DNA of 64,000 bases from an uncultured Chloroflexia bacterium. GTDB lineage: Bacteria; Chloroflexota; Anaerolineae; CG2-30-64-16. The notes beneath the pieces are model-generated. The model was not told the DNA's origin. It did no database searches and saw nothing but the letters and a program-made list of their open reading frames with translations. How positions within the stretch are numbered: position 1 is the stretch's first letter; every line of letters begins with the position of its first letter. This document shows positions 13,761 to 39,928 of the stretch, one piece after another. The stretch covers positions 128,001 to 192,000 of the forward strand of contig CAWEMM010000009.1 in assembly GCA_963810095.1 (NCBI GenBank). The letters are read 5' to 3'. The position numbers and the translations under genes are program-made.

Positions 13761-13816
13761 TGCACCACTAATACATCCTTTTGGGTCTCCCTCGCCAACC
13801 GACATTGCGGTATCCT
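13761..13816 (+). promoter_or_regulatory. island motif site 1 plus -10 (upstream of argF)
   Basis: TGCACCA-CTAA-TACATCC-TTTT-GGGTCT, 22 nt, TATCCT. Confidence 0.75.
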
Positions 13817-14001
13817 CTGAGAAGCAGGCCCAGCGCCCTCTGGCTGGGGGCTGTTCCGCAGGCGGCGCGATTTGCTTTTTCGCGCCTTGCGACTGAGGAT
13901 TAAGCGTCGAGGATCGGGCCGTGAGCACGGTCTCTCGGGACTCCGAACTTGGTGCGCGCGACCCTCAATCATACTTGCTACGCAGAAGGAGAAGCTCACT
14001 C

Positions 14002-15003
14002 ATGGCATTTAACCTGCGGAACCGCAACTATCTGAAAGAGCTGGACTTCACCCCGGAAGAACTCAGGTTCCTGCTCAAGCTGTCTGCCGATCTCAAGGCC
14101 GCGAAATACGGCGGCTACGAACAGCCTCGCCTCAAGGGGAAGAACATTGCGCTCATCTTCGAGAAGTCGTCGACCCGCACCCGCTGTGCGTTCGAGGTAG
14201 CGGCCTACGACCAGGGCGCGCACGTGACGTATCTTGGGCCAGAGGGCTCGCAGATCGGGCACAAGGAGTCGATGAAGGATACGGCGCGGGTCTTGGGCCA
14301 CATGTACGACGGGATCGAGTACCGGGGCTTTGGGCAGGAGACGGTGGAAATCCTCGGCCGGTATGCAGGCGTGCCCGTGTGGAACGGTCTGACGAACGAG
14401 TTTCATCCGACGCAGTCCCTGTGCGACGTGCTGACGATGGTCGAGCACAGCAACAAGCCGCCGAGCAAGATCGCCTATTGTTACCTGGGCGACGCGCGCT
14501 TCAATATGGGCAACTCGTTGATGGTGATGGGCTGCAAGATGGGCATGGACGTTCGCCTCTGCGCGCCCCGCCCACTATGGCCGGCCGACGAGCTGGTGGC
14601 GGCGGCCAGGCAGGTGGCCGCGCAGACCGGCGCCCGCCTCACGCTGACCGAGAACGTCGAAGAAGGCATCCAAGGTGTGGACTACATCCATACCGACGTG
14701 TGGGTGTCGATGGGCGAACCGAAGGAAGTCTGGGACGAGCGCATCAAGCTGCTCAAGCCGTACCAGGTGAACGCGGACGTGATCAGCAGGACCGGGAACC
14801 CGCAGGTGAAGTTCATGCACTGTCTCCCCGCATTCCATAACCGGGAGACGAAAGTTGGCGAAGACATCTACCAGAAGACGGGGCTTGATGCGCTTGAAGT
14901 GACCGACGAGGTTTTCGAGTCGGAACGGTCGATCGTGTTCGAACAGGCCGAGAACCGCATGCATACGATCAAAGCGATCATGGTCGCGACGCTCGGAAAC
15001 TGA
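14002..15003 (+). CDS. argF: ornithine carbamoyltransferase
   Basis: [30 protein letters not shown] and AENRMH motifs. Confidence 0.95.
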
Positions 15004-15133
15004 GGGCAGGGCAAACGCAGCCCTACTGACCCCCCGTATGCCGCCGGCTGTGCGAACCGCGGCCGGCGGTATGACCGCTTACCCGATTGCATCGTTCCGC
15101 CGCCGATCATTTATCTCACTGAGGAGGACAGGC

Positions 15134-15994
15134 ATGAGCCAAAGGAACTGGCTGTCGACGATGATGCTGGCAGTGCTCTTGCTGGCGCTTGTGGGCTGCA
15201 CGCCCCCACCTGCGGCGCCGGCGCCGGCTCCCACTTCCGCACCGGCGAGCAATGCAGAGCCCGCCGCGGGATCGCCGCCGGGCCAGGGCCTGCCGGGCTC
15301 GGAGTGGCAGCTTGACGCGATGTTTGGGGGGCCGGCTGCGGTGCCGGTGGTGCCCGGTAGCGTTCCAACGCTGGCCTTCGCAGAGAACCGCTATCTTGGC
15401 TTCGGCGGGTGTAACTGGTATCAGGGGCTCTTTGTCCTGCGCGGGACCAATGGTCTCCAGTTCAACGGGCCCGCGACGACGCGCTTCGGCTGCACCGCGA
15501 ATACGCCGACTTCCGTGCAGGAAGCCACCCTCATCCCCATGCTGACCAGCATCGCCAAGTACGACATCAAGGACGGCAAGCTGCGGATGTTCATGGGCGA
15601 CGACACGCTGCTGTTGACCTTTACACAGCTCCAGCCCGTACCGCTGGAGGGCACCCCCTGGTTGCTCAATTTCTACTTCTCCCAGCCGACTGCCATGTGG
15701 ACGCCGCCGCTCGTCGGCACGATGCCCACCTTGCGCTTTGAGGGCGGGCAGGTGAGCGGCAACACCGGCTGCAACGATTTCACCGGCAAGTACGATCTGC
15801 AGGGTGACCAACTGAAGATCAGCAACCTGGCGACGACGAAAAAGACTTGCGACCAGCCCAACGGCATCATGACCCAGGAGCAGGCCTACCTGTCCACGCT
15901 TCAGAGCGCGACGACGCTCCAGAAGTTCCCGCGCACGGTCCAGCTGCTGGGGAGCGACGGCCAGCCGCTGCTGATCTACAACACCGGCAAGTAA
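15134..15994 (+). CDS. lipoprotein with two META (HslJ) domains
   Basis: Lipobox LVGC; two GxxGCN...TxxxC META repeats. Confidence 0.85.
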   Translation: MSQRNWLSTMMLAVLLLALVGCTPPPAAPAPAPTSAPASNAEPAAGSPPGQGLPGSEWQLDAMFGGPAAVPVVPGSVPTLAFAENRYLGFGGCNWYQGLFVLRGTNGLQFNGPATTRFGCTANTPTSVQEATLIPMLTSIAKYDIKDGKLRMFMGDDTLLLTFTQLQPVPLEGTPWLLNFYFSQPTAMWTPPLVGTMPTLRFEGGQVSGNTGCNDFTGKYDLQGDQLKISNLATTKKTCDQPNGIMTQEQAYLSTLQSATTLQKFPRTVQLLGSDGQPLLIYNTGK

Positions 15995-16036
15995 ACCCTG
16001 GGGGGCCCGCGCTTTGCGGCGGGTAAGGAGGCGAGT

Positions 16037-16963
16037 GTGGCTAAGGACAAGAAGGACAAGAAGGACAAGAGGGACAAACACAAGGGCAAGCTCGACACCA
16101 AGCCCGAGGCCGCGCAGGTCGCGGAGCCGGGCGGCGGCGCGCCGGCCATCGTTTCCGCAGCGCCGCAGGAGGCCGGCTGGGACGACAAGCCCAAAATGAA
16201 GAAGAAGGAGTACGAGGCGGAACTGGAGCGGCTCCAGGTCGAACTCGTCAAGATGCAGGAGTGGGTGAAGGCCACGAACGCCAAGGTCTGCGTTCTCTTC
16301 GAGGGCCGCGACGCGGCCGGCAAGGGCGGCATCATTAAGGCCATCTCCGAGCGCACCAGCCCCCGGGTGGTCAGGGTCGTGGCCCTGGCTTCGCCCACCG
16401 AGCGCGAGAAGTCGCAGATGTACTTCCAGCGTTACATGCCCCACCTGCCGGCCGGAGGCGAAATGGTGCTTTTCGACCGCAGTTGGTACAACCGGGCGGG
16501 GGTCGAGCGCGTCATGGGCTTCGCGACCGAAGAGCAGGTGGCGAGCTTCCTGAAGTTTGCGCCGGCGGTGGAACGGGCCATCGTCGCGTCCGGGGTCATC
16601 CTCGTCAAGTACTGGCTTGAAGAGACCATGGAGGACCAGACCGAACGGTTCGAGGAGCGCATCCACGACTACAAGAAGATCTGGAAGCTGAGCCCGATGG
16701 ACCTGGAAAGCCACCGCCGCTGGTATGACTATTCGCGGGCGCGCGATGCGATGTTTGCGGCCACCGACTGCCCGGAAACGCCCTGGTACGTGGTGGACTC
16801 GCACGACCAGAAACGCGGCCGGCTAAATTGCATCAGTCATCTCCTCAGCCTTGTGCCCTATCACGAGGTGCCACACGAAGAAGTGGTCTTGCCGAAGCGC
16901 CAGGACAAGGGCGATTACGAGAACCCGAACCATCCATTCCGGTGGGTGCCGGCCAAATACTAA
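16037..16963 (+). CDS. ppk2: polyphosphate kinase 2
   Basis: FEGRDAAGKGG, LFDRSWYNR and WKLSPMD motifs; N-terminal KDK tandem repeat. Confidence 0.95.
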   Translation: MAKDKKDKKDKRDKHKGKLDTKPEAAQVAEPGGGAPAIVSAAPQEAGWDDKPKMKKKEYEAELERLQVELVKMQEWVKATNAKVCVLFEGRDAAGKGGIIKAISERTSPRVVRVVALASPTEREKSQMYFQRYMPHLPAGGEMVLFDRSWYNRAGVERVMGFATEEQVASFLKFAPAVERAIVASGVILVKYWLEETMEDQTERFEERIHDYKKIWKLSPMDLESHRRWYDYSRARDAMFAATDCPETPWYVVDSHDQKRGRLNCISHLLSLVPYHEVPHEEVVLPKRQDKGDYENPNHPFRWVPAKY

Positions 16964-16999
16964 GCCTCCGGTCATTACGGGAGAGGAGTTGATCCGATC

Positions 17000-19762
17000 A
17001 TGGCAGATGGCTCTCAACAATCAAAGTGGTACACCTTGGGGCCGGACGCAGTGGCCCGCGAACTCAAGGTCGACCCGGCAAAAGGGTTGAGTTCGGCCGA
17101 GGCGCAGCAGCGCCTGCAGCAGTACGGGCCCAACCAGCTTGCCGCCAAGAAAAAGGAGCCCGGCTGGCTGTCGTTCGTGCGCCAGTACAAGGACTTCATG
17201 CAGATCATCCTGATCGGCGCGGCGGTGATCAATCTGATCTTCACCCAGGACCTCCGCACGTCCGTGATGCTGGTCGTCCTCACCATCTTCAACGCTGTGA
17301 TGAGCCTGCGCCAGGAGTCCAAGGCCGAGGCTAGCCTGGCCGCGCTCGAGAAGATGATGAAGAACATCGCCCGGGTGCGGCGTGACGGCCAGGCGATCGA
17401 GATCGAGGCCGAAGCGATTGTGCCCGGCGATATCGTGCTGATGGAGGCCGGCAACCGGGTGCCTGCCGACGGCCGTCTCTTCGTCACGGCGACCCTCGAG
17501 ATCGAGGAGGCCGCGCTGACGGGCGAGAGTGTCGCCTCGCCGAAGGACACGGAGACGATTGAGAAGGCGGACGCTGCGCTTGGCGACCGCCACTGCATGG
17601 CCTACATGAACACCGCGGTCACCCGGGGCCGGGGCGAGATGATCGTCACGACGACGGGCATGGGCACCGAGATGGGCCACATCGCCGACCTGCTGAACAA
17701 GACTGAAGCGGACAAGACGCCGCTGCAGAAGCAGCTCGACCGCCTGACCATCATCATCGCCGGCATCGCCGGCCTCGCGTTTATCGTCATGTTGATCCTT
17801 GGCCTGGCGCGCGGCCAATCCTTCGACTCCGTCTTCGTCGCCGGCATCGCGCTGGCTATTTCGGCCATCCCGACCGGCCTCCCGGCGGTGGTGACGACGC
17901 TTTACTCCATGGGCACGCAGGTGCTGGCAAGTCAGAACGCGATCGTCAAGCGGCTGCCTTCCGTCGAGACGCTCGGGTCGGTCTCGGCAATCTGCTCGGA
18001 CAAGACGGGCACCCTCACGCTCAACAAGATGACGGCCCGCGAGTTCACGGTGCCGGGCCAGAACCACTACAAGGTAACCGGCGAGGGTTACAGCACGCAG
18101 GGCCAGCTGCTGCATGACGGCGGCGCAAAGATCGACCTCGACGAAATTCTGCTGCCCATGGCGCTCTGCGCAGATGCTCGCCTCGACGGGACGGACCTCA
18201 TCGGGGATCCGACCGAGGGTGCACTGATCGTGTTGGCCGAAAAGGGCGGCATCAGCGTCGAAGGGGCCCGCCAGAAGTACCCTCGTATCGCCGAAGTCCC
18301 GTTCGACTCGGACTACAAGTTCATGGCGACCTTCCATAACATGACGAATGCGGAAGGCAAGCCCGTCGTGCGCTGCTTCGTGAAGGGCGCGCCCGACGTG
18401 CTCATCGCCCGCAGTAATTCGCTGTGGGTGCCCGGCGGCCAGGTTCTCGTCGGCGACGAGGAGAAGGGCCGGCTGGCGCTGGCAGAGAACGAGCGCATGG
18501 CGAAGGCCGGCGAGCGCGTCATGGTGGTGTCGCGCCGCGACTTCGATCCCGCCACCTTCGACCCGAAGGGCCCGGCCGGCGACGGCAAGCTGCTGCCCCT
18601 CGTGCAAGACCTGACGTTCCTCGCCATGGTCGGCATCGTCGATCCGCCGCGTGCGGAGGCGAAGGCCGCCATCGCCAAGTGCCACAGCGCGGGCATCCAG
18701 GTCCGCATGATTACGGGCGACCATGCGGTGACGGCCGCGGCCATCGGCCACGAGCTGGGCATCGAGGGCAAGGCGCTGACGGGCGCGCAGTTCGCCGCCA
18801 TGAGCGACGACGACCTGAAGAAGGACCTCGACAACATCGGCGTGATTGCCCGGGTGGCGCCCGAGGACAAAATCCGGCTGGTGCGCCTGCTCCAGGAGCA
18901 GCAAAACATCGTCGCCATGACCGGCGACGGCGTAAACGATGCGCCGGCGCTGAAGAAGGCCGACATTGGCGTCGCGATGGGCATCACGGGTACGGAGGTC
19001 TCCAAGGGCGCGGCGGTCATGATCCTGACCGACGACAACTTCGCAACCATCGTGAAGGCGGTGGAGTTCGGCCGGGCCATCTACGACAACCTGGCGAAGT
19101 ACATCCGCTTCCAGATGACCGCGCTCGTCGCATTCATCGCCTCCTACCTGGGTGCGGCGTTGTTCCTCATCGCGGGCGGCGTGCCGTTCTCGCCCCAGGT
19201 CGTCTTGTGGATCAACTTCCTCGTCCAGGTGCCGATCGCGATTGCGCTCGGCTTCGACAAACCGTCACCCGGCCTCATGGATCGCAAACCGCGGCCGCTC
19301 AGCCAGCCGGTAATGAACCGGGCGCAGTGGAGCCGTGCCATCTTCATCGGCTTGCTGATGACGGTCGGCACCCTCGTGTTCGAAGCAATTGGTTCCCAGT
19401 ACGCGACGCCGCTCATGTTCACCATGGGCTTTGCGGTGTTCTCGCTGTTCAACATTGTGATGGGGTTGGCCGTGCGCAGCGAAACTGACACGGTGTTCAC
19501 CCGGGACATCTTTTCCGACCGGCGCCAGCTGGGGCTGTACGGCCTTGCCCTGCTGTTGACCTTGCTGCCCACCGAGTTGGCGTTCCTCCGCGACCGGTTC
19601 GGCCTGACCGGCCTCACCATGCAGCAATGGCTGATCTGCGCCGCGGCTGCGTTTGCCTTGTTGCTCGTCACCGAGATCATGAAGGTCTTTCTCCGGCGGG
19701 GCCGCAAGCAAGCGGCTGCGCAGGCTGAAGCCGTCCCGGTTTCGGGGCCGCAGCCCGCATAA
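17000..19762 (+). CDS. cation-transporting P-type ATPase (type IIA-like)
   Basis: LTGES, DKTGTLT, KGAPD, MITGD and MTGDGVNDAPAL motifs; IPTGL in place of PEGL. Confidence 0.95.
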   Translation: MADGSQQSKWYTLGPDAVARELKVDPAKGLSSAEAQQRLQQYGPNQLAAKKKEPGWLSFVRQYKDFMQIILIGAAVINLIFTQDLRTSVMLVVLTIFNAVMSLRQESKAEASLAALEKMMKNIARVRRDGQAIEIEAEAIVPGDIVLMEAGNRVPADGRLFVTATLEIEEAALTGESVASPKDTETIEKADAALGDRHCMAYMNTAVTRGRGEMIVTTTGMGTEMGHIADLLNKTEADKTPLQKQLDRLTIIIAGIAGLAFIVMLILGLARGQSFDSVFVAGIALAISAIPTGLPAVVTTLYSMGTQVLASQNAIVKRLPSVETLGSVSAICSDKTGTLTLNKMTAREFTVPGQNHYKVTGEGYSTQGQLLHDGGAKIDLDEILLPMALCADARLDGTDLIGDPTEGALIVLAEKGGISVEGARQKYPRIAEVPFDSDYKFMATFHNMTNAEGKPVVRCFVKGAPDVLIARSNSLWVPGGQVLVGDEEKGRLALAENERMAKAGERVMVVSRRDFDPATFDPKGPAGDGKLLPLVQDLTFLAMVGIVDPPRAEAKAAIAKCHSAGIQVRMITGDHAVTAAAIGHELGIEGKALTGAQFAAMSDDDLKKDLDNIGVIARVAPEDKIRLVRLLQEQQNIVAMTGDGVNDAPALKKADIGVAMGITGTEVSKGAAVMILTDDNFATIVKAVEFGRAIYDNLAKYIRFQMTALVAFIASYLGAALFLIAGGVPFSPQVVLWINFLVQVPIAIALGFDKPSPGLMDRKPRPLSQPVMNRAQWSRAIFIGLLMTVGTLVFEAIGSQYATPLMFTMGFAVFSLFNIVMGLAVRSETDTVFTRDIFSDRRQLGLYGLALLLTLLPTELAFLRDRFGLTGLTMQQWLICAAAAFALLLVTEIMKVFLRRGRKQAAAQAEAVPVSGPQPA

Positions 19763-19892
19763 CAGACCTGCGCCCGCCGGGGTCGCGACAGCTCCATGCC
19801 GCGGTCCCGGGGGCGCCCATCCCTGTTTCGATCAACCTGCCCAGGTTGTGAGATAGTTCGTTTGAAGCACATCTATCAAAGGAGTTGCAGTC

Positions 19893-20823
19893 ATGACCGA
19901 GCCCCAGGAACAAGAACAGGTCCAACCGGCTGCGGAGGAGCAGCCGCAAGCGTCTGAAGTGGCCCCCGTCGCCGCGGAACCGCAGGCCGTGCCCGGTGTG
20001 GGCTTCCTCGTAATGGCCTTCAACGACGAAAAGGCCGCGGATCAGGCGCTCGACGCGATGAAACAGGCCAAGAAGCAGAAGCAGTTCTACTTCGAGGAAG
20101 CTGCTGTCATCCGGCAGGATGTCAACGGTAAGGTGCACTATCACGAGACCGGCGACATGGGCAAAGGCAAGGGCGCAGGCATCGGCGCGCTCGTCGGCGG
20201 CGTCCTGAGCCTCCTTGGCGGCCCCATTGGCCTCGCAGTGGGCGCGGGCATTGGCGCGCTGGCGGGCGCGGCAGCGGCGACCAAGGACAGCGGTTTCCGC
20301 AACGAGAGCCTGAACATGGTAGGCGTCGCACTGAAGCCGGGGACCTCGGCCGTCGTGACCATCACGAGCAGCGCGTTCCTCAAGGCTGTTCAGAAGCAGG
20401 TGCCCATCGACGAGATCCGGGGGACGGTGACCAACCTCTCCGCCGAGATCTCCGCGGCCCTGGCCGAGAAAAAGGATCTTGCCATCGGCGTGCTGCTGAC
20501 CGAAACCGGCCTCGCCGTGCGGAAGATCGCCATCAATGAAGAGAGTGCCGAGGTTGTCGCCGCGGTGTTCACCGACGAAGCGGTTGTGGCGGGCGCGGCG
20601 TACGTGGACGCACAAGGCGTCGCGTACGAGGTGGTCGCAGCGACGGCCGACGGTGCGGCGATGGAAGCCGGGGTCATTACGGACGAAGGCGCGGTCATCG
20701 TCGGCGCGGTGGCCCTGCCGGCGGCGGCCGAAGCAACCGCTGCGGCGCCCGACGGCCGACGAGAACAAGGTTTCGGCCGAGAAGCCGGCCGAAACACCTG
20801 CGTCTGAAGCACCGGCGGCCTGA
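19893..20823 (+). CDS. DUF1269 family protein with an acidic repeat extension (frameshift near 20760)
   Basis: EAAVIRQDVNGKV, glycine zipper GAGIGALVGG, LKPGTSAV. Confidence 0.75.
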
Positions 20824-20980: not shown

Positions 20981-21036
20981 TGCACCTTCAATACACCTTT
21001 TTGGGCCTACCGCAGTATCACCTGCGGTGGTAACCT
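20981..21036 (+). promoter_or_regulatory. island motif site 2 plus -10
   Basis: TGCACCT-TCAA-TACACCT-TTTT-GGGCCT, 22 nt (ending TGG), TAACCT. Confidence 0.78.
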
Positions 21037-21081: not shown

Positions 21082-21387
21082 TTGAAGCGCGGCAGTCAAC
21101 GTTTCCTTTTTGATGCACCTGGCGCCTATCGCATTCGCGTTCAGGGTCATCTTGCCGCGCACTGGACAGACATGCTGGGGGGAATGGTCATCTCGTCAAG
21201 AGGCGCCCAGGGGAAGACCGCGGTGACGACGCTCAAGGGGACGTTGATCGACCAGGCCTGCCTGATGGGCGTGCTGACCGCGTTGTACGAGATGGGGTAC
21301 ACCCTTCTGGATGTCAAGCGCCTTCCGGACCCGGTAATTCCCTTTGCGGAGACCGGCGAGGCCACAGGGCAGCGTCCGGCCGCCTGA
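21082..21387 (+). CDS. conserved hypothetical protein (YRIRVQGHL...DQACLMGVL type)
   Basis: Small ferredoxin/ACT-like pattern I recall from near MalT-like regulators (unverified); RBS GGGAG. Confidence 0.7.
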   Translation: MKRGSQRFLFDAPGAYRIRVQGHLAAHWTDMLGGMVISSRGAQGKTAVTTLKGTLIDQACLMGVLTALYEMGYTLLDVKRLPDPVIPFAETGEATGQRPAA

Positions 21388-21420
21388 GCAAAGGCTGATC
21401 ATGGAGAAAGGAGCTTCACA

Positions 21421-21858
21421 ATGACTTTTGGCCCAATCGATTTCATCGCACTTGAGTTTCCCGGTAACAACTTCAAGGGTGAAATCCTCCCCGACATCTT
21501 TGAGCTCGTCGATCGGGGCGTGATCCGCGTGCTCGACCTGGTGATCATTCAGAAAGACCCGGACGGCGCGCTGCGTGTGCGCGAGCTTCAAGAACTCGAG
21601 CCGGGCATGATGACGGTGCTCAACCCGCTGAAGGCCGAAGTCAGCCAGATGATCACGGTCGCCGACATCGACAACATCGCGGCCAAGCTCGAGCCCAACA
21701 GCACCGCAGGCCTGATGCTCATCGAGAATGTGTGGGCCAAGAAGACCCAGCAGGCGATGATCGAAGCGAACGGCCGGCTGGTGATGTTCGAGCGTATCCC
21801 GCACGACGTCGTCGAAGAAGCACTGGCCGAGATGGCCGCGCTGGCCGAGCGAGCGTAG
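21421..21858 (+). CDS. DUF6325 family protein (DUF1269-related)
   Basis: GPIDFIALEFPG, IRVLDLVII and LIENVWA motifs. Confidence 0.82.
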   Translation: MTFGPIDFIALEFPGNNFKGEILPDIFELVDRGVIRVLDLVIIQKDPDGALRVRELQELEPGMMTVLNPLKAEVSQMITVADIDNIAAKLEPNSTAGLMLIENVWAKKTQQAMIEANGRLVMFERIPHDVVEEALAEMAALAERA

Positions 21859-21951
21859 CACGGGGAAAATCTGTCTCGGTCCGAAGCGAGGCCGGCGTTT
21901 GGCGCGGACCACCCGGACCGGGAATGTTTTTGATATCAAAGGAGGTCCATT

Positions 21952-22335
21952 ATGATGCGAAGACGAGGGATGCCGTTGGTGCGCGCGGCCGCGACGACCG
22001 CGGTCGTGGCGGGGACCGCAGGAGCGGTCAGTCACCATCAGCAGCAGAAGTACCAGCAGCAGGCTTACGAGCAGCAGGCTATGTACTCCCAACAACAGGC
22101 AAGCCAGCAGCAGCAGATCGACGCTGCCCAGCAGCAGGCTTACCAACAGGGCTTGGTCGACGCACAGGCCCAGCAACAGCAGTATGCTGCGCCGCCACCG
22201 CCGCCAGCACCGGCGCCCGCGGCTCCCGGCAATGACCTGACGGCCCAGCTGCAGCAGCTTGCGCAGCTGCACAACGCCGGCGTGCTGAACGACGAGGAAT
22301 TCGCCGCAGCGAAGCAGAAGCTGCTGGCCGGCTGA
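21952..22335 (+). CDS. SHOCT domain protein
   Basis: TTAVVAGTA, Gln/Pro-rich linker, C-terminal LQQLAQLHNAGVLNDEEFAAAKQKLL. Confidence 0.88.
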   Translation: MMRRRGMPLVRAAATTAVVAGTAGAVSHHQQQKYQQQAYEQQAMYSQQQASQQQQIDAAQQQAYQQGLVDAQAQQQQYAAPPPPPAPAPAAPGNDLTAQLQQLAQLHNAGVLNDEEFAAAKQKLLAG

Positions 22336-22480
22336 AGCAGAGGGCTTAACCCTGTCACCCGTAGTTGTGCTTACAATCGGATGTTCTGTATAATGTCTTT
22401 CGGGTCTCTGGTCGCACGGCCAATCGCGTGTCGTGGGTAGTTCATCTCTCCGTTTCATAACGTTTCTAGGAGGAAAAATC

Positions 22481-23047
22481 ATGACCGCATCAGTAGCACC
22501 GTCAGCTACGTCAGTCCCCGCACGGCAGCGTCCCTGGTGGCTGACGCTGATCATCGGCATCTCTGCAGTCGTCATTGGCGCCATCTTGCTCTTCGGCACC
22601 GTGGACAGGCGCATTGATACGTACATGTTCCTGGTCAAGGCGCTCGGCCTGTACTGGGTCGTTTGGGGCATCCTGGAACTCGTGTGGATGTTCATCGACC
22701 ACAGCGGCTGGGGCTGGAAGTTGTTCATGGGCATAGTAAGCATCATCGCAGGCGGGTCGATCCTGATGTACCCGGTTGCGGCTGCGATGACTCTGCCCCA
22801 GGTCTTCGTGCTGGTGCTCGGCATCTGGGCCCTCATGGAAGGCATTATGTTGCTCTTCCTCGCCTTCAAGGGCGGTGGCTGGGCGGCCGGCATCCTCGCG
22901 GTGATCTCCATCGTGCTGGGCCTCATCCTGCTCGGCTCCTACGGCAACCTGGGCACGGGACTTGCGATGCTGTGGGCCGGTGCGATCTGGGCCTTCATCG
23001 GTGGCTTTGTCCTGATCTTCCAGGCGTTCCGCTCCCGGAAGGCCTGA
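22481..23047 (+). CDS. HdeD/DUF308 family membrane protein
   Basis: PWWLTLIIGI start and six TM helices with a repeated GxxxIIxG pattern; RBS AGGAGG. Confidence 0.8.
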   Translation: MTASVAPSATSVPARQRPWWLTLIIGISAVVIGAILLFGTVDRRIDTYMFLVKALGLYWVVWGILELVWMFIDHSGWGWKLFMGIVSIIAGGSILMYPVAAAMTLPQVFVLVLGIWALMEGIMLLFLAFKGGGWAAGILAVISIVLGLILLGSYGNLGTGLAMLWAGAIWAFIGGFVLIFQAFRSRKA

Positions 23048-23282: not shown

Positions 23283-23338
23283 TACACCCAAACTACACCC
23301 AAATGGGCCTATTGTCAGGCTTACAAATGGCGTATGCT
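23283..23338 (+). promoter_or_regulatory. island motif site 3 plus -10
   Basis: TACACCC-AAAC-TACACCC-AAAT-GGGCCT, 22 nt, TATGCT. Confidence 0.78.
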
Positions 23339-23411
23339 ATTTGTGGGTGCCCTTATCGGATCGCTGCCGGGGGCATCCCATCCACACCCTATTCAGTCAG
23401 GAGGCCGAACC

Positions 23412-23729
23412 GTGTTACTCATTGGATGTCTCTTCGCATTCGCCCTCGCCGTCGCCCCGCGCGTTGTCCTGGTGCTCGCCTGGATCTTCAGCGACCGCTG
23501 GCAGATCGTCTGGGGCGGCCAGTGGCTCTTGCCCTTGTTGGGGATCATCTTCCTGCCCTTCACGACCGTCATGTACATGCTGACGTGGAAGCCGACCGGC
23601 ATCCAGGGTTGGGACTGGCTGTGGATCGGGCTGGGCGTGTTCATGGACCTGATGAAGTGGGCCCAGATCGCGGCCAACCGGAAGGGCATCCCGGGCTACC
23701 CCGACGGGAACCCCGCCCCCGTTGTCTGA
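23412..23729 (+). CDS. small membrane protein (paralog of 24901-25200)
   Basis: RBS AGGAGG; GCL...PR...LPLLGIIFLPFTTVMY...DWLWIGL shared with the paralog. Confidence 0.75.
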   Translation: MLLIGCLFAFALAVAPRVVLVLAWIFSDRWQIVWGGQWLLPLLGIIFLPFTTVMYMLTWKPTGIQGWDWLWIGLGVFMDLMKWAQIAANRKGIPGYPDGNPAPVV

Positions 23730-23849
23730 TCCGCAAACCGTCCGTCATGGGATGGCAGTGTCCGCCAGCGGTTGAGCTAACGTGGGCCGCCAGATAGCTT
23801 GCTATACTGCGGCCCACGCATGGACCCCGCCTTCAAGAAGGAGTGGCAC

Positions 23850-24425
23850 ATGGCAGGGAACTTGTTGGTCCTGGCGTTTGACGGGGAGCACACGGCCAAG
23901 ACCGTGTGGGGCGACCTTATGAAGCTCGAGGAAGCCGGCGTGGTCGACATCGAGGACGCGGTCATCGCCTGGCGACCGCCGCTCGAGGGCCCCGATCTCG
24001 CCAGCTCGATGGCGGCCACTAGCGTTTCCACCGCGTCCAGTGTCTCCACCCGCACGAACGTCTTCGATTCCTCCAAGCTGCAGATCGAACAGACGAAGCA
24101 TCCCCTGAAGAAGAAGTATGCCGGCCGCGGCGCCGCCATCGGATTCGTGGCCGGGGTCTTGCTGGGCGGCCCCATCGGCGGGCTGGTCGTGGGAGCGGGC
24201 ATCGGTGCGGTCAGCGGGTCGATGAAGGACGCGGGCATCAAGGAGGACTTCATCAAGCAGACTGCAGCCGCTTTGAAGCCGGGCACCTCCGCCATCTTCG
24301 CCCTGGGCCATGCCAACGACCCCGAGCGCCTGATGCAGGAGCTGCGGGCGTTCGAGCCCCGGGTGCTTTCGACCACCCTCGATCCGGAGAAGGAGCGCGA
24401 GCTCCGTAACGCGCTGGGCGGCTAA
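23850..24425 (+). CDS. DUF1269 family protein
   Basis: LVLAFD, IEDAVI, glycine zipper, LKPGTSAIF. Confidence 0.8.
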   Translation: MAGNLLVLAFDGEHTAKTVWGDLMKLEEAGVVDIEDAVIAWRPPLEGPDLASSMAATSVSTASSVSTRTNVFDSSKLQIEQTKHPLKKKYAGRGAAIGFVAGVLLGGPIGGLVVGAGIGAVSGSMKDAGIKEDFIKQTAAALKPGTSAIFALGHANDPERLMQELRAFEPRVLSTTLDPEKERELRNALGG

Positions 24426-24452
24426 GCTAGTCGCGGCAGAAAAGGCCATAAA

Positions 24453-29490: not shown

Positions 29491-29667
29491 GGAGGGGCTT
29501 GCTCCTTGTGTGCGGCTGCAGCCGTCCAACTCGCCGGCCGCGTCAAGTGCTCGCAGGCAGCCCTGCGAGCACACGAACAACCTTGGCAGCGCGTGCAGCC
29601 TTGATCCGCCGTGACCCGCCCGCCGCCCAGCTGTGAGCGACAGATGCGGGCACGATCGGCTTGCTGG

Positions 29668-30234
29668 TTACCGGCTCGGGTGGGCCATCTCGTCGACGCA
29701 CACCGCAATCGCCAGAATCAGCGCGTCGTCCTGTCCGGGGTCAATCTCGACGCCGTAGGTGTCGCGCAGGCGGAACCATTTCTTGGAGATCTCGGCGATC
29801 TTGTCGCGGCCTTCGCCAATGGTATATTCGTGGTCCAGGATGTTGCCCTGAACCTCGAGATCTGGCCCGCCGCGCACGTTGACGGTCCAGCGTTCGCGGA
29901 TCGGCGTGATGAGCGCTTTCTTCACCATGGCAACCCGCTGGCCGCGTGCGTCCTCGACCTCCATAGAGTCCTTGACGCGCAACATGCGCTCCTGGATCTT
30001 ATAGAGTTCCTGGCCGCGGGCGTCCTCGAGGATCAAGGTTTGGCGAACACGCAGCGCCTTGCCGTCTACCTTGTAGACCTTCTCCCCGCGATCGTTCTCG
30101 ATCCAGAAATCGTCGCCGATCGATATCATCTTCTGCCGCATCTGGTAGTGGTTTTTGCCGCCACCGCCGCCCAGTGGGCCCCCGCGGTCGTCTTGCCGCT
30201 CATCGCGGCGCTCTTCACGTGCTCCCCGACGCAT
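29668..30234 (-). CDS. LURP-one-related / Tubby C2 family protein
   Basis: YQMRQKMISIGDDFWI, KVDGK, VQGNILDHEY and RDTYGVEI motifs. Confidence 0.85.
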   Translation of the reverse strand: MRRGAREERRDERQDDRGGPLGGGGGKNHYQMRQKMISIGDDFWIENDRGEKVYKVDGKALRVRQTLILEDARGQELYKIQERMLRVKDSMEVEDARGQRVAMVKKALITPIRERWTVNVRGGPDLEVQGNILDHEYTIGEGRDKIAEISKKWFRLRDTYGVEIDPGQDDALILAIAVCVDEMAHPSR

Positions 30235-30392: not shown

Positions 30393-30448
30393 ATGATACA
30401 GCTTTGTCCCCGCTCTGGACAGACCCAAAAGGGTGTACTTGCGGGTGA
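30393..30448 (-). promoter_or_regulatory. island motif site 4 plus -10
   Basis: Minus strand TCACCCG-CAAG-TACACCC-TTTT-GGGTCT, 22 nt, TATCAT. Confidence 0.78.
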
Positions 30449-30462
30449 TTATGAGCCGGCCG

Positions 30463-31090
30463 CTACTTTTTGGGCGCGGGGACCGCGGGCAGTTGCTCGA
30501 TGGCTTTCTTGTCGAGCTTTAGGTAGACGACGTCGCCTTCGACATGGTCCACCTGCTCCAGCGGGATCGTGACATCTCGCTTGCCCCAGAAATGCCCCTT
30601 GCGCAGGACCAGGTGCGACACGACGCCGGTCGCCGGCTCGATGATCAATTCCTCCACCTTGCCGACGTCGCCGTCCGCTGCTTCGACGCGCGCGTCTTGA
30701 TGGATCGCCAGCTCGTTCAGCCCCACCTGTTCCTGCTCCATCGTGGCGTTCGACAAGGCTTCCACCATGTAGGCTGCGTCGGGCGAGGTGTAGGGGCCCA
30801 TCACGTTTGCGCCCGCCATCGAGTCGGCCAGCCTGGCCAACTGCTCCTCATCGGCCGGCACTTCTATGACGAAGGGCTCCGCGCCGGCCAGCTGGGCGCA
30901 GGTCCAGCTCAAGTCGATGCGCACAGCCGAGCTGCTTGCGATGGCCTCGACCGGGACCCGCAGCTCGAGTTCCTCGACTGCAACCACGAAGTGGGTTACT
31001 TTTCTGGTTGGCCGGTCTACAACGATCGCGGTGCTGCGACCGCCCGGGTCCGTCGGAACAAAAAACCTGCACGTTCAATGGGATATCCAT
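30463..31090 (-). CDS. PRC-barrel domain protein (frameshifted near 31000-31040)
   Basis: MDIPLNVQVFCSDG start; second barrel ARVEAADGDVGKVEELII...SHLVLRKGHFWG. Confidence 0.78.
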
Positions 31091-31165: not shown

Positions 31166-31221
31166 AGTATCGCGCAGACGGCGGCCGTCCGACAGACCTA
31201 AAAGGGTGTAGTCGGGGCGTA
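31166..31221 (-). promoter_or_regulatory. island motif site 5 plus -10
   Basis: Minus strand TACGCCC-CGAC-TACACCC-TTTT-AGGTCT, 22 nt, GATACT. Confidence 0.78.
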
Positions 31222-31256: not shown

Positions 31257-34144
31257 TCAGGAAGACGAGGCGGGCGAAGACGGCCGGATGAGCTCGAGTT
31301 CAACGGCCTGTGCCACCGCCTCACGGCGGCCGCCGACCGACAGCTTCTGGTAAATGTTGACGGTGTGACGCTTAACCGTCATGGGGGAGATGGACAACTC
31401 CTTGGCGATTTCCTTGTTGCTGAGCCGTTCGTTAAGCAACGCCAGCACTTCGAGCTCGCGTTCGGAGAGCGGCTCGATGAGCCCCGCCTGGCCGTTCTGG
31501 CCGACCTTGTGCCCCGCCGGCGCCGTGTTGAAGTCGCCGGCCTTGTTGTCTCGGAGGGCCGCAGGAGCCACGGGCGCGTTGCGCAGGGCCGGTTGGGGTT
31601 GCGGCGTCTCGCCGAAGGCCGCCAGGAGGGAGTCGACGTACTCGGCCGTCTCATCCCGGGCAGCAAGCTGGCGGAGGAGCGCTGCCATGTTGGGACCCAA
31701 GTCGACGAAGACACGGACGAGGCCGCCGCGTCCAGCCAGGCGCACGGCCTGTGCGAGGGTCTCCAGCGCCGTTGCCCGATTCCGGCGGGCGTCGTGCAGC
31801 AGGGCCTCGAGCGCAAGCGCTTCGATTCAGAAAGCGCGTGTTGTGAGTGCTCTGGAGCGCCGCGCGCAGCTCGGTTAGCATGCGCCCGGCTTCGTCCAGG
31901 CCGGCCTGCGTTCCCTTGCCCAGCAGCACCTCGACCAGCGCGAGCGGCGAGGCGTAGAAAACGGGCAGCGCAGTAGCCCGGACCGTGTGATCTGCGCGCT
32001 GGGCCCAGCTTTCCGCATCCGCCAAGCCGCGATTGGAGCAGCGCAAGGTGCGCCGCGTACGCCTCAGCGTCGCGCTCCAGGCTGGGATTACCCGCTGCGG
32101 TTGCATGGGCGTACACGAGCGCCACGACGGCCCTCGGCACGTTCGGGCAAGCCCTGGGCCTGGTAGACGGATGCGAGACCAAACCCACTCTGCATCACGA
32201 CCAGCGCATAGGCTTCATGGCGGCGATCGAGAACGAACGCGAAGTGTTCCTCGGCACCGGTAAGGTCGTTAAGCGATGTAGCGTCCGCATCCGAGATAGA
32301 AGTCCGCGCGGGTTAGGCTGTCGGGAAGGTCCGCGTCGCGGGCCGCCGTCAGCAGGCGGTTGGCGGTCTGAAGCAGGGTTGCGGGATCGGCTTCCATCCA
32401 GTAGGCTGCGCACAGGATCATGAGCAGGCGTCCCTGGGCAGCGCTGCCGTGCAGCCTGTCGTCCTGCAACGCGTTCTCGAGCACCGCCACACCCTCTTGC
32501 AGCCGGCCTTGCATCTGGAGTGCGCCAAGGTAGTATGTGAGCGCCGCCGCACCGCGCATAGCCCCACTCGCGCGGAACGAGGCCGAGCGCACGCTCGGCC
32601 AGGGCGAGCGTGCGGGACGCATCCCCTGACCAATAGGTGACCTGAGAGCGCAGGGCGGCGATCTCCCCCTGCAATTGTCGCGCAACTGTCTCGGATGGCG
32701 GGCACTGCTCCATGGCCGCCTCGATTTCGTCGAGGCACACGGCCAGGTCGGATAAGTGGAAGCGGCCGTGCAGCGTCCATGCCTTCAGCATCATCATTTC
32801 GGGCCGGGTGTCGACCAGCCGTTGTGGCGCAAGGCTTAGCCAGTGTTCCAGTTGGCCGAATTGCTCCCGGTTCAGCATCTCGTGGCGGTGCTCCTGCACC
32901 ATCTGCACCACTGCGTCCTCGTCGCCTGCCGCAAGCGCGTGTTGGATCGCCTCGGCCACCAGGCCATTCTGTGCAAACCACGCACTGGCTCGCCCGTGCA
33001 GCGCGGCGAGTTCGCTTGCGTCGCACCGCCGTTCAAGCTGGCTGCGCAGCAGCTTCTGGAACAGTTGGTGATAACGATACCAGTTACCCTGCGCATCGAG
33101 CGAGAAAGTGAACAGGTTCTGTGCCGCCAGCCACTCGAGGTACGCCTGACCGTCCCACTGTGAACCGGCCTGCCCGGCCACCGCGTCGCAAAGCGGCCCG
33201 GAAAGCCGCGGCAGGATCGAGGTCGTCAGGAGAAACTCGTAGGTGGCAACGGGAATGTGCGCGAACACTTCGTTCAGCAGGTAATCCAGGACATAGCGGC
33301 TATTTACCGCCAGCTCGGGGCTGGAGACATCGCCGCCCGCGGTCAGCGCCAATGCGGCGAGCCGCAGACCGGTAACCCAGCCCTCGGTCCATTCTGCAAG
33401 CGAATTGACGGCTGGCGCATCGAGCGGAACGCCGAGCGTCTGCTCCATGAATGCGGCGATCTCGGCCGGCGTGAAGCGCAGCTCGCGCACCCGGATTTCT
33501 GCCAGCTCGCCCCGTGCCCGCAGCGCATGCAGCGGGATCCGTGGGTCTTGCCGCGTGCTGATGACAAGGTGCAGGCTGCGGGGAGGGTGGCGCAGGATCT
33601 CGCCGAGCAGCGAGTGCACCTCTTGGCCCTGGACGTTCTGATAGTCGTCAAGCACCAGGACAAAGCGTTGTGGCGCGCCGGGTTCAGAGTCCTCGGCCAG
33701 GCGGTCAAGATCATTGGCGAGTGCGGTGACAAACGAGGCGAGCGGCGGACGAGCGGGCGCCTGGAGCAAGCTTAAGGTATCGGCACACGAGTCGGGATAC
33801 AATGAGCGCACACTCGCGACGAAGTATCTGAGGAACAGGGTCAGGTCACTGTCGCTTTCGTCGAGCGACAACCAGGCGTTGGGAAATGGGGCGGCGCTGA
33901 GCCAATCGCTGAGCAGCGTGGTCTTGCCGAAACCCGCGGGCGCACAGACGAGCGTGAGGGTGCGCTCGATATTGCGGTCGAGAGTGTCGCGTACACGCTG
34001 CCGGCGGATCAGGTCGCCCGTGGCGCGGGGGCGATACAGTTTCGTCCGCAGTAGATTTAGCGGTAGCGCTTTGCCTGCCAAGAGATTCCATCCAGTGCTA
34101 CGGGATTCGGTCGGGAACACGGCGGCAGTGAGTTGCCGCATCAT
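31257..34144 (-). CDS. MalT-like (STAND ATPase-TPR-LuxR) transcriptional regulator; several frameshifts
   Basis: LRTKLYRP, APAGFGKTT, LVLDDY, TEGWVTGLRL, WYRYHQLF; C-terminal LSERELEVL...SNKEIA...TVKRH LuxR HTH; start uncertain. Confidence 0.88.
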
Positions 34145-34436
34145 CCTAGCACGACCGGCCAGGAATGGCAAGCGTGCATGCAAGAGACTGCCTCGCACGA
34201 TTTTGGTTCAGCAAAATACGCTGTAGCACCAACCCTTGACGGCTCCCGCTCTCCGCCTGGCGGCGGTGCCCGAGCGGCCTTGCAGGACTTAGCATCTCTT
34301 CATCCGGGATTAATCACGCTAGCCATCTGTCCATTGTAAGAGTGAGACAAATCGACTATCATGGAGGCGCGACCCACGCGAGTTTTGACGCGTACGCGTC
34401 ATGCGCCGGGCAGGGCGCCCACGGAGGTAAAGTCAC

Positions 34437-37515: not shown

Positions 37516-38157
37516 TCAGTCCAACAAACCGTGCTTAACCGCCAGCGCCGCAGCTTCGGCGCGGTTTGCTGCGCCGAGCTTGGCCAGGATTGCGCTGACG
37601 TGAAAGCGGACGGTCGAGAGCCCGAGGTACAGCTGCTTGGCAATCTCCTGGTTGCTGCGCCCCTGCACGACCAGTGCCAATACTTGACGCTGGCGGTCGG
37701 TCAGGTCTTCGATCAACTCGGGCCGCGCACTTTGGGCTTGGATGAGGGCCTGGGTTGCAGCTCGGTGCAGGGTGGATTGGCCCCGGCTGGCACTGCGCAC
37801 GGCTTGCGCTAACTCGTCAATCGCCACATCCTTCAGCAGGTAGCCGATCGCCCCCGCCTTGAGCGCATCCCGCACCAGCTGGGCCTCGTGAAAGCTGGAG
37901 AGCACGAGCACCTGCGTCGTCGGGTTCTGCTCCCTGATTTTCCGCGTCGCAGCCGAACCGTCCATGCCCGGCATCATCATGTCCATCACCACCACGTCAG
38001 GACGGTGCATATCACAGAGGCGGACTGCCTCGTCACCGTTGCTGGCTTCACCCACGACGCAGATATCGTCAAAGGCCCCCAGCGCGAAGGCAATGCCGCG
38101 CCGTACGACGGGATGATCGTCGACCACCAGTGTCCGAACCAGGTTGTTGTCATACAT
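37516..38157 (-). CDS. NarL/LiaR family response regulator
   Basis: VVDDHPVVR, PDVVVMD, GYLLKD; LuxR HTH LTDRQ...SNQEIA...TVRFHV. Confidence 0.93.
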   Translation of the reverse strand: MYDNNLVRTLVVDDHPVVRRGIAFALGAFDDICVVGEASNGDEAVRLCDMHRPDVVVMDMMMPGMDGSAATRKIREQNPTTQVLVLSSFHEAQLVRDALKAGAIGYLLKDVAIDELAQAVRSASRGQSTLHRAATQALIQAQSARPELIEDLTDRQRQVLALVVQGRSNQEIAKQLYLGLSTVRFHVSAILAKLGAANRAEAAALAVKHGLLD

Positions 38158-39838
38158 GCAGGTCACTCCTCCTGCGCGGTCGATAGCTGACGCGCACCTC
38201 GGTGCCCCGTCCCGGTGCGCTTCGGACGGTCAGTTTTGCCCCCATCTGTCTGGCCCGCTCCTGCATAATGCACAGGCCCATCTGGCCCTCTGCCCGCGCG
38301 TCAACTTCGAACCCGCAGCCATCGTCTACAATGGCCAGCCGGACCTCCTGCGACCGGGCCCGGTAGTCGACTTCAACGTGCGAGGCGGCAGCATGCTTCA
38401 CGACGTTGCTGAGCGCTTCCTGGGCGATCCGATAGAGGGCTAGCTTCACATCGGCCGGCGGTTCCACCTCTGCCACGGCATCGGTCATCACGGGGATCAG
38501 CAGTCGGGTCGCGGCAGCCTCCCCCAGCTGGCGTATCAGATCGGGTAGGGGCTTTTCGATCAGCGCTGCGGGACGCAGCTCCATGAGCAGCATGCGCATC
38601 TCTGCCAGTGCGCCGCGGGTCCACTGCCGCAATTCTGCCAGTGCCGCCCGCCCCGCAGCGGGATCACGCTCCCACACCCACGGCAATGCCTCGGCCACCA
38701 CGCTCGCGGAGAAGAGGGTCTGCGTGACCGCGTCATGCAGGTCCCTGGCGATGCGGCTGCGCTCATTTTCGATCGCGGTCTGTTCGGCGCGCTTGCGGAG
38801 CTCCGCATTGTCCACAGCCAGGCCGATTTGGCGGGCAAAGAGGTAGTTAAGCTCCACGTCGCCCTCGTCAAGGTCGTGCCGGTCGCCATGGTAGACGGCC
38901 AGGTAGCCGTAAAGCCTGTCTGCACACTGGATCGGCGTCGCGATCAGGCTGTGGGCGGGCGAGGAAGGCACGTGGGAAGCGCCTGGGGATGCCTGCGCCG
39001 CGTCCACAAGGGGGGTGTGGGTCACAACCACCCCCCGCGGCCGTGCCAGGGCTTGCGCCAGGACCGCCGGCGTGAGGACCTTGTCGATCGTCCCCTTCCG
39101 TGGGGGCCGCGCTTCAGACCCCGCCACGAGCACCGGGTGATCCCAGCCCTCCGCGACGGAGTAGATGGCGGCAGCCGAGCCGCCCGAGGTGGCGCGCACA
39201 CGCTCCACCATCGCATCGAGCGCATCATCGATGTGCCGTCCCGAGCTGGCAATTGCCAGGAGATCGGCCACGGCTTCCGCCGTGCGCTGACGGCTCTCGG
39301 CCGCAGCACGCGCGGTCTCTGCCTCGCGACAGGCGGATTCCGCCGCCTCCTTCGCTGCGCGCAACTCCGCCTCATTCAGCTTCTGCTGCGTGATGTTCTC
39401 ATGGGACACCACCACGTGGCGCGCACCGTCAAGCTCGAACGCCGTGACCTGCTGGAGGAAGTGGCAGCCGCCGGGGGTGTCGCATGAATACTCCACGCGG
39501 TAGGAGGCAGTCGAGCCCTGCAGCACCCCCCGGATGCCGCCTGCGATATTGGCAGTGCCCGGGTCGCTCTCGGCAGCCCGGTCAAGCGCTGCCAGATAGT
39601 TGAAGCCAACGCCATGACGGGGCCAACGCAAGCCGTTCTCGTCCGCATAACGGCGCCAAGGGTCGTTAACGGCAACGATGACGCCGCGGGCATCGAGCAC
39701 TGCCACACTGATACCCAACGCGCTCAGCGCCGAGGCAAGCGCAGGCGCAGGTGCAGAGAGCCTGCCGTTACCGCCCTCGAACGCGGCCGGCCGGCTGGGT
39801 TTGTGTTGGCCCGGCTTAAAAATGACTGTTGCGCTCAT
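38150..39838 (-). CDS. PAS/GAF sensor histidine kinase (HisKA_3)
   Basis: ERSRIARDLHDAVTQ, QEALSNVVKHA, DDGCGF, GLCIMQERA; no TM segment seen. Confidence 0.92.
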   Translation of the reverse strand: MSATVIFKPGQHKPSRPAAFEGGNGRLSAPAPALASALSALGISVAVLDARGVIVAVNDPWRRYADENGLRWPRHGVGFNYLAALDRAAESDPGTANIAGGIRGVLQGSTASYRVEYSCDTPGGCHFLQQVTAFELDGARHVVVSHENITQQKLNEAELRAAKEAAESACREAETARAAAESRQRTAEAVADLLAIASSGRHIDDALDAMVERVRATSGGSAAAIYSVAEGWDHPVLVAGSEARPPRKGTIDKVLTPAVLAQALARPRGVVVTHTPLVDAAQASPGASHVPSSPAHSLIATPIQCADRLYGYLAVYHGDRHDLDEGDVELNYLFARQIGLAVDNAELRKRAEQTAIENERSRIARDLHDAVTQTLFSASVVAEALPWVWERDPAAGRAALAELRQWTRGALAEMRMLLMELRPAALIEKPLPDLIRQLGEAAATRLLIPVMTDAVAEVEPPADVKLALYRIAQEALSNVVKHAAASHVEVDYRARSQEVRLAIVDDGCGFEVDARAEGQMGLCIMQERARQMGAKLTVRSAPGRGTEVRVSYRPRRRSDLHV

Positions 39839-39872
39839 CCGCAATCCATCGCATAATACAAAAGTCGCATGC

Positions 39873-39928
39873 AGTATCGGACCCGGGGCGATCATTCACA
39901 AGACCCGAAAGGGTGCAAAAAAGGAGTA
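39873..39928 (-). promoter_or_regulatory. island motif site 6 plus -10 (upstream of the kinase)
   Basis: Minus strand TACTCCT-TTTT-TGCACCC-TTTC-GGGTCT, 22 nt, GATACT. Confidence 0.75.

Follow-up and report, generated by a model that had tools for sequence, protein, structure and literature searches.

A recurrent 28-bp promoter element as the probable operator of MalT-like LAL activators in an uncultured bacterium

Six copies of a 28-bp element, each followed at a fixed distance by a -10-like hexamer, lie in a 64,000-nt stretch of bacterial DNA, and they raise the question of which protein, if any, they serve and how far beyond this locus they reach. The stretch, here called the window, is G000:C9:128001-192000 (64.5% G+C), where G000 is the source genome, other G numbers are its relatives and C and L numbers denote contigs and loci. 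A first-pass annotation had read the element as a class II activator site marking an undescribed regulon and had named a MalT-like LuxR-family protein as its most plausible binder. Our comparisons support a model in which the element is probably the operator of a MalT-like activator of the LAL type at about 18 promoters, with the LAL protein encoded at 31257-34198 as the likeliest binder of the sites in the window.

Results

Six sites share one promoter geometry

All six copies were found where the first-pass annotation had placed them and on the same strands.

13761..13788, + strand: predicted activator site 1, TGCACCA-N4-TACATCC-TTTT-GGGTCT (window letters TGCACCACTAATACATCCTTTTGGGTCT); -10 box TATCCT at 13811-13816
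20981..21008, + strand: predicted activator site 2 (TGCACCTTCAATACACCTTTTTGGGCCT), conserved in G001; -10 box TAACCT at 21031-21036
23283..23310, + strand: predicted activator site 3 (TACACCCAAACTACACCCAAATGGGCCT); -10 box TATGCT at 23333-23338
30421..30448, - strand: predicted activator site 4 (TCACCCGCAAGTACACCCTTTTGGGTCT); -10 box TATCAT at 30393-30398
31194..31221, - strand: predicted activator site 5 (TACGCCCCGACTACACCCTTTTAGGTCT), 36 nt past the MalT-like gene's stop; -10 box GATACT at 31166-31171
39901..39928, - strand: predicted activator site 6 (TACTCCTTTTTTGCACCCTTTCGGGTCT), with an identical 28-mer in G001; -10 box GATACT at 39873-39878

Each lies between open reading frames (ORFs) and is aimed at the next gene, and the gap from site end to -10 box is exactly 22 nt in all six, the boxes being of the form TANNNT or GATACT, as the annotation had claimed. 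Its description of the half-sites as direct, direct and inverted also stood: they start at motif positions 1, 12 and 23, a phasing of 11 bp. The printed consensus, TACACCC-N4-TACACCC-TTTT-GGGTCT, recovers all six, but the real sites are more degenerate than it implies, with two to four mismatches over the 24 specified positions. In the window, a limit of three mismatches recovers only two of the six and a limit of four exactly the six, with none extra at five; the reversed pattern and 200 shuffles gave no match in the window at up to four mismatches. A matrix scan of the window scored the six at 40–47 and the next best match at 13. The six sites are real and non-random. The consensus may be written TACACCC-N4-TACACCC-TTTT-GGGYCT. 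A generic sigma-70 scan found no -35/-10 pair at the five sites within 13500-31500, which fits promoters that need an activator. The fixed spacing to a -10 box and the missing sigma-70 -35 box bear out the assignment to class II, MalT-type sites.

The element recurs across the genome and in relatives

A first matrix, built from the six window 28-mers only and leaving out the -10 box, gave 24 further matches genome-wide at a score of at least 14. In seven of these 24, TANNNT stands exactly 22 nt downstream, where about 0.06 such cases would be expected from its background frequency of 0.0026 per position. With a second matrix, 18 sites scored at least 20 among the 12.26 million positions of the genome, and the consensus at up to four mismatches gave eight matches in the whole genome against none in the control. 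Thus, although the window sites stand, a regulon made up of the window's operons alone does not: about 18 sites are spread over the genome. The further sites precede paralogs of the window's target genes, as the following examples from G000 illustrate.

C9:40439, C15:35545 and C12:7982: DUF6325-SHOCT behind a site
C7:597034: DUF1269 behind a site
C9:3374: PPK2 and P-type ATPase behind a weak site
C7:595833: sulfatase and PIG-L behind a site
C5:12554: pyridine-nucleotide-disulphide oxidoreductase with rhodanese domain behind a site
C4:2263: site of a unit that carries, further down, a split copy of the oxidoreductase-rhodanese gene
C4:2369-4276 (L005): protein of 635 aa that contains a neurotransmitter-gated ion-channel ligand-binding domain; the LAL-adjacent site C4:4352 precedes it

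A sequence-only model from 15 sites, run on 31 genomes at E ≤ 0.1, matched 17 times in G000, nine in G001 and eight in G004, which belong to one genus, and weakly in G025 (2) and G013 (1), with no match at that threshold in the other 26 of the 31. A family-wide search of 37 genomes at E ≤ 0.01 added G034 (3), G041 (1) and G042 (1). The gene families behind the window sites also follow sites in relatives, and contig C3 of G001, which is syntenic with the window, keeps five sites before the same genes. At these five orthologous promoters, the motif is 121/140 (86%) identical between G000 and G001, and all 28 bp of it are conserved; the -10 box is identical at 22/30 positions, the 22-nt spacer at 48/110 and the flanks at 42%. 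We rejected the reading of the element as a repeat or mobile sequence because the 28 bp and the -10 box are all that the copies share. Core-pattern 17-mers in G013 and G017 were also set aside as unrelated repeats, seemingly repeat or insertion-sequence ends: GTCACCCTTTTGGGCCT occurs 11 times in G013 as one identical 17-mer, and TAGACCCTTTGGGGCCT six times in G017, five of these within about 100 nt of a contig end.

Sites are linked to genes for LAL proteins

The gene immediately upstream of site 5 encodes the MalT-like protein of the window, with recognition helix SPMTVKRHTVNIYQK.

31257..34198, - strand: MalT-like LAL regulator gene, with an AAA_16 STAND NTPase domain and a GerE/LuxR helix-turn-helix at about 31311-31472

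By tblastn, G000 has 11 LAL paralogs, and a motif-type site stands beside seven of them, in six cases right after the stop and co-oriented and in one case divergent. Five of the 18 strong sites lie within 500 bp of a LAL gene, where random placement gave a mean of 0.13 and a maximum of four in 2000 permutations. By the same 500-bp measure, no strong site is close to any of the 23 NarL-type regulator genes. The order LAL stop, site, -10 box and target recurs in G004, G025, G027, G034 and G041. It is found at G004:C125 and one more G004 LAL, at all four of the best LALs of G025, which belongs to a different family, at two LALs of G027, and in G041 at C232 and, by coordinates, at C708. In G034, a different genus, TACATACTCAATACACCCTTTTGGGTCT starts about 20 nt past the LAL stop on contig C10, ahead of genes for the small protein described below, DUF6325 and SHOCT. 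Overall, seven of 20 LAL loci examined carry such a site. The co-occurrence with MalT-like genes that the annotation proposed as a check is seen in this genome and in other genera and families. A search of genome contigs with the LAL N-terminus returned nine loci, none with a convincing site. In Paenibacillus tarimensis (CP166298.1; L087), a weak sequence resembling the site, with TATGAT (score 12.8), occurs about 1.2 kb past the matched N-terminal part of a distant LAL homolog (32%), about the expected gene end; this may be chance.

The best match to the window LAL in a named genome is a Caldilineaceae metagenome-assembled genome (MAG), at 45% identity. An intact 943-aa paralog on contig C7 of G000 contains AAA_16, TPR_MalT and GerE domains, and its match to NCBIfam MalT spans positions 2–893 of 903 (375 bits, E = 7.5e-112). 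Since this falls below the 537-bit equivalog cut-off, the proteins described here are MalT-like rather than MalT. The C7 gene (L091, C7:582301-588400) diverges from the genes of a PAS protein and of a GAF-HisKA_3 kinase, and after it comes an ion-channel gene that lacks a motif site; the LAL-channel pair also occurs at G001:C32.

Half-sites change with the recognition helix

A second LAL subfamily has the helix LALDT(V/I)KGHNRR(I/L)F instead of ISPMTVKRHTVNIYQ. In more than 10 genomes of the class, its genes carry CAACACC-N4-CAACACC-AAA-GTGTCT right behind the stop, with TATAGT-like boxes 22–23 nt past the site.

C9:88274-91174 and C9:19724-20332 of G000, outside the window, and L097-L110: units with LALs of the KGH-helix type

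Relative to ACCC-N4-GGGT, the dyad ACAC-N4-GTGT is changed symmetrically in both arms and keeps the same three-half-site layout. We counted this covariation with one fixed, strict palindrome rule applied to all LAL/GerE C-termini. Eleven of 15 LALs with the helix T-x-K-G-H-x-R are followed by ACAC-N4-GTGT-CT and a -10 box, and none by the ACCC type; for the helix T-x-K-R-H (n = 20), the figures are two for the ACCC type and none for the ACAC type. Neither type follows any of the 48 other GerE proteins, four of them of the response-regulator type. At G000 C15:7800-8094, another LuxR-type C-terminus comes before a different palindrome, TCACCACATGTGGTGA, together with a TATCCT box and one of the copies of the small protein described below, which suggests that further operator classes exist.

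Weighing the assignment

Taken together, the linkage to LAL genes and the covariation of helix and half-site make the MalT-like protein the best candidate and the assignment in the first-pass annotation probably right. Several observations weigh against it. Sites next to LAL genes made up part of the training set of the second matrix, and the genomes compared are related, incomplete MAGs that are not independent of one another. The strict rule finds an adjacent ACCC site for only two of the 20 KRH LALs, and the other sites, found by matrix, are more degenerate. The sites beside the C4 and C5 LALs have a different second half (TGACTC..GGCGCG), yet the TVKRHTVN core of the window LAL recurs in the C5 LAL; with the same helix core (paralogs on C5 and C12) and a different site, a simple helix-to-site code is incomplete. 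Regulator and sites track one another across genomes with the exception of the syntenic locus of G001, which lacks a LAL in the interval from the AI-2E gene to the PRC site and yet keeps sites and targets; the closest LAL of G001 (59% identity, helix SPATVKRHTVNIYQK) is on another contig, with no site behind it.

The window gene itself is also broken. The annotation had given it as one ORF, 31257-34144, which does not hold in this assembly: single-base insertions at 31828, 32027, 32137, 32274 and 32552 change the reading frame five times. None of the five lies within a long homopolymer run. The window copy carries either assembly errors or a strain lesion, and it may be a strain-specific pseudogene. 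The likeliest alternative builds on this. It holds that LAL proteins do bind the sites but that the acting one is a paralog in trans, such as the intact C7 protein (G000:C7:584546, helix SPMTVKRHASNIYRK), and that the window copy is a decaying pseudogene. We regard it as unlikely. In its favour, the five frameshifts fall within 725 bp while a nearby 920-aa ATPase gene is intact, the genome has 11 LAL paralogs to draw on, and G001 keeps its sites where no syntenic LAL is found. However, contigs from four public DNA runs of three studies (≥90% identity) have exactly one letter fewer at each of the five places (31828, 32026/7, 32137, 32274 and 32551/2), with only one other indel listed in that 10 kb, and without those five letters one frame stays open for 981 codons; environmental relatives thus carry an intact gene. 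Split genes also occur elsewhere in this assembly, which likewise counts against the pseudogene reading, and the G004 ortholog of the window LAL is intact, has an identical recognition helix and is followed by a canonical site.

A still less probable account assigns the motif to the NarL-type response regulator at 37516-38166, which, with its GAF-GAF kinase, would bind it, autoregulate through site 6 and control the other five promoters. Site 6 does front the kinase-regulator operon and has the identical 28-mer in G001, the regulator has a GerE helix-turn-helix, and its orthologs occur in both other motif-bearing genomes of the genus (81% in G001; 70% and 62% in G004), one paralog in G004 forming a unit with a LAL behind a site. 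The G001 locus without a LAL could be read in the same direction. Nonetheless, this is the only one of the 23 NarL-type genes with a strong site no more than 3 kb away. In G007, the regulator has a 70% ortholog whose helix equals that of the G004 protein, yet the genome gave no core-motif match (control, one) and no model match; conversely, G034 has a canonical site right after a LAL stop and no match to the regulator at E ≤ 1e-50, and in the motif-bearing G041, G042 and G025 the best regulator matches (52%, 50% and 48%) are at paralog level. A NarL regulator cannot explain the covariation of helix and half-site among LALs, and the homologous regulon of Actinoplanes depends on MalT (PMC7567727). 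The GAF-GAF kinase and NarL regulator had also prompted a DosR-like reading, which we demoted after the co-occurrence tests. The two-component system is more likely a target of the regulon than its regulator.

That the element is not a transcription-factor site at all, but part of an alternative-sigma promoter or a small repeated or mobile sequence, is very improbable: the fixed distance to the downstream hexamer and the absence of a recognisable -35 box would suit it, but the hexamer is of the housekeeping TANNNT type, the element is a dyad with a phased direct repeat, nothing past it and the -10 box is common to the copies, and the element shows both linkage to LAL genes and covariation with the helix-turn-helix that they encode.

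Genes behind the sites

The operons that the first-pass annotation had named as controlled are those that we find behind the six sites; DUF, SHOCT and other domain names below are Pfam matches.

13921..20807, + strand: operon behind site 1, inter-ORF gaps of 34–130 nt
13921-15003, + strand: ornithine carbamoyltransferase (site 1)
15038-15994, + strand: META (site 1)
16037-16963, + strand: PPK2 (site 1)
17000-19762, + strand: P-type cation ATPase (site 1)
19893-20807, + strand: DUF1269 (site 1)
21082..23047, + strand: operon behind site 2
21082-21387, + strand: small ACT-like protein of an unannotated family (site 2)
21421-21858, + strand: DUF6325 (site 2)
21952-22335, + strand: SHOCT (site 2)
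22433-23047, + strand: DUF308 (site 2)
23228-23256: terminator-like hairpin after the site 2 operon
23343..25698, + strand: genes behind site 3
23343-23729, + strand: membrane ORF with a GTG start 5 nt past the -10 box (site 3)
23799-24425, + strand: DUF1269 (site 3)
24468-24863 and 24883-25698, + strand: two ORFs without a Pfam family (site 3)
27486..30234, - strand: genes behind site 4, in an order kept in G001
29668-30234, - strand: LURP-one-related (site 4)
28492-29580, - strand: solute-binding protein SBP_bac_3 (site 4)
27486-28682, - strand: protein with N_BRCA1_IG domain (site 4)
30463..30987, - strand: PRC-barrel gene (site 5)
37516..39844, - strand: two-component operon behind site 6
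38150-39844, - strand: GAF-GAF-HisKA_3-HATPase_c kinase (site 6)
37516-38166, - strand: NarL-type response regulator with GerE helix-turn-helix (site 6)

Overall, the Pfam families of the window include ornithine carbamoyltransferase, PPK2, two copies each of DUF1269 and DUF308, SHOCT, AI-2E and one MalT-like gene. The true start of the histidine kinase is probably 39844 rather than the listed ATG at 39895, which would overlap the -10 box of site 6. Elsewhere in the genome, behind the sites C4:2263 and C12:7982, the first gene has its ATG exactly 7 nt past the -10 box, suggesting leaderless mRNAs that start where predicted. The membrane ORF of site 3 is either leaderless or begins later, because its GTG (23343) is only 5 nt past the -10 box. 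Several transcripts of the regulon may thus be leaderless. Just upstream of site 1 lie transposase fragments (DDE_Tnp_1, DUF772) and a gene for a treble-clef zinc-finger protein, at 11835-13002 (- strand) and 13111-13578 (+ strand).

A small protein accompanies LAL-linked units

The first gene behind site 2 belongs to an unannotated family of 85–105 aa with the invariant pattern Y..I...G.....W.....G ... L.G...DQ..L.G, whose members very often stand first behind LAL-linked sites; all seven copies in G000 are in LAL-linked units.

21082-21387 in the window; C9:21255, C9:92536 and C15:8094; C4:2177, C5:10572 and C12:7896 on the - strand: copies of the small protein in G000
L154:2119-2394: a further copy, one of many at other loci

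The protein matches no Pfam family at E ≤ 1 beyond noise and no PDB sequence at E ≤ 1, and an Atlas search returned unnamed clusters only. Its AlphaFold model (pLDDT 84) has a ferredoxin-like, ACT-like fold, with weak Foldseek matches (E about 1e-3). A complex prediction with the C-terminal part of the G034 LAL (564 aa, 31-row alignment) and the small protein (19-row alignment) scored 0.00 and gave no answer.

Discussion

Our results support a model in which LAL proteins act at these promoters much as MalT does. A LAL activator would combine a STAND ATPase with a TPR sensor and, at its C-terminus, a LuxR/GerE helix-turn-helix, and the element would present it with three half-sites on one helix face: TACACCC, a second TACACCC 11 bp on and, after a T-rich 4-bp spacer, an inverted GGGTCT, the last two forming the palindrome ACCC-TTTT-GGGT. 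Such an arrangement fits the model of a cooperative MalT oligomer. Placing the -10 hexamer at -12 to -7 would put the site's 3' T at -35 and the dyad centre at about -42.5, so that the 3' end of the site would abut the place of the missing -35 box and transcription would start 34–36 nt past the site. By analogy with MalT, we infer that a LAL activated by inducer and ATP would multimerise, fill the array cooperatively and recruit RNA polymerase with the housekeeping sigma factor. The predicted regulon of about 18 promoters would comprise poorly understood membrane and stress genes, among them DUF1269, DUF308, DUF6325-SHOCT, PRC-barrel and LURP-one-related genes, together with PPK2, P-type ATPases, ornithine carbamoyltransferase, sulfatases and the GAF-kinase/NarL system.

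The closest described system is that of Actinoplanes sp. SE50/110 (Droste et al. 2020, PMC7567727). There, the MalT-like ACSP50_3915 activates 40 of the 51 genes of a large maltose-regulated genomic region, as judged from malT deletion, overexpression and transcriptomes; its operator, TCATCC-N5-GGATGA, overlaps the -35 box of 17 transcription start sites, at a distance of 34.4 ± 1.0 nt from the motif's 3' end. Table S3 of that report lists SHOCT (3900), DUF1269 (3901, 3908, 3912), an AI-2E transporter (3909), MalT-like LuxR regulators (3915, 3917), ornithine carbamoyltransferase (3922) and DUF308 (3940), and ppk2 occurs in the corresponding regions of related strains (PMC7567727). The two share several features: a MalT-like regulator is encoded inside the island, a palindrome sits at the -35 position of many promoters (17 there, about 18 here), the predicted 34–36 nt from site to start matches the distance measured there, and SHOCT, DUF1269, DUF308, AI-2E, ornithine carbamoyltransferase and ppk2 are shared, by family names only. 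The two also differ. Here, the operator is ACCC-TTTT-GGGT with an extra upstream direct half-site, so the Actinoplanes operator itself is not found; the phylum is probably Chloroflexota; the regulon adds the GAF-kinase/NarL system, P-type ATPases, sulfatases and DUF6325; the sites are spread over several contigs; and regulation is predicted, whereas in Actinoplanes it is experimental. The regulon is probably the Chloroflexota-type counterpart of the MalT-activated region of Actinoplanes with its operator rewritten.

Other MalT systems offer further points of reference. In E. coli, the proximal MalT box replaces the -35 element at position -34.5 to -35.5 (quoted in PMC7567727), and MalT in its active state is an oligomer that depends on ATP and inducer and whose DNA-binding domains occupy promoter arrays in a cooperative manner (PMC10427625). 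The proteins and sites described here resemble those of E. coli and Klebsiella in domain order, in the full-length NCBIfam MalT match of the intact paralog, in arrays of at least three sites that include direct repeats and in a site that stands in place of the -35 box; in contrast, the box there is GGGGA(T/G)GAGG and the targets are maltodextrin genes. The features of a MalT-like regulon found here are thus a STAND NTPase/TPR/helix-turn-helix regulator, fixed spacing that abuts the -35 position, a phased half-site array and linkage of gene and site.

Two further comparisons are less close. The window's GAF-GAF-HisKA_3 kinase and NarL regulator, their stress-type targets and the site before their own operon recall the DosS/DosT-DosR (DevS-DevR) system of mycobacteria. 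The DosR box, however, is of the GGGAC-N-GTCCC type, with its G-runs outside the dyad, whereas here they lie inside it, and the NarL regulator does not track the motif across genomes. In the class II promoters of LuxR and TraR, a GerE-family helix-turn-helix binds a dyad centred near -42.5. The predicted position here resembles that of the lux and tra boxes; unlike those regulators, the LAL is a STAND protein of about 940 aa with no autoinducer-binding domain, and the element has a third, direct half-site.

The claim that the regulon is undescribed therefore holds in part. Although searches found no published record of this exact motif, both the system and a large part of its gene content have already been described in Actinoplanes (PMC7567727). 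Literature searches with the motif strings ACCCTTTTGGGT, TACACCCTTTTGGG and ACCCAAAAGGGT returned only unrelated eukaryote and virus papers, a search for DUF1269 with regulon one unrelated Streptomyces paper, a search for a Chloroflexi LuxR regulon nothing relevant, and a search for LAL binding sites SARP-LAL and PAS-LuxR work in Streptomyces on other site types. No new mechanism is revealed: the motif is new, and the kind of system is already known.

A broader reading is tentative and, with its four parts taken jointly, doubtful. LAL genes of this class may form a radiating family of independent units, each made of a LAL, an operator behind its stop and a target operon. Their specificity may be readable, TVKRH going with ACCC-N4-GGGT and TVKGHNR with ACAC-N4-GTGT. 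The small ACT-like protein may bind a ligand and act as a feedback partner to the STAND activator. Finally, one such unit may have grown to a regulon of about 18 promoters in an old stress-gene island shared with Actinomycetota.

In summary, transcription control in uncultured Chloroflexota is almost unknown, and for about 18 promoters the result supplies an operator, a promoter geometry and a regulator that can be tested. It draws DUF1269, DUF6325, SHOCT, DUF308 and the new small ACT-like protein into one predicted co-regulated set with PPK2, P-type ATPases and ornithine carbamoyltransferase, and, by family names, the same set responds to a MalT-like activator in Actinoplanes. A half-site change that tracks a change in the recognition helix would also provide a simple handle on the specificity of LuxR-type helix-turn-helix domains.

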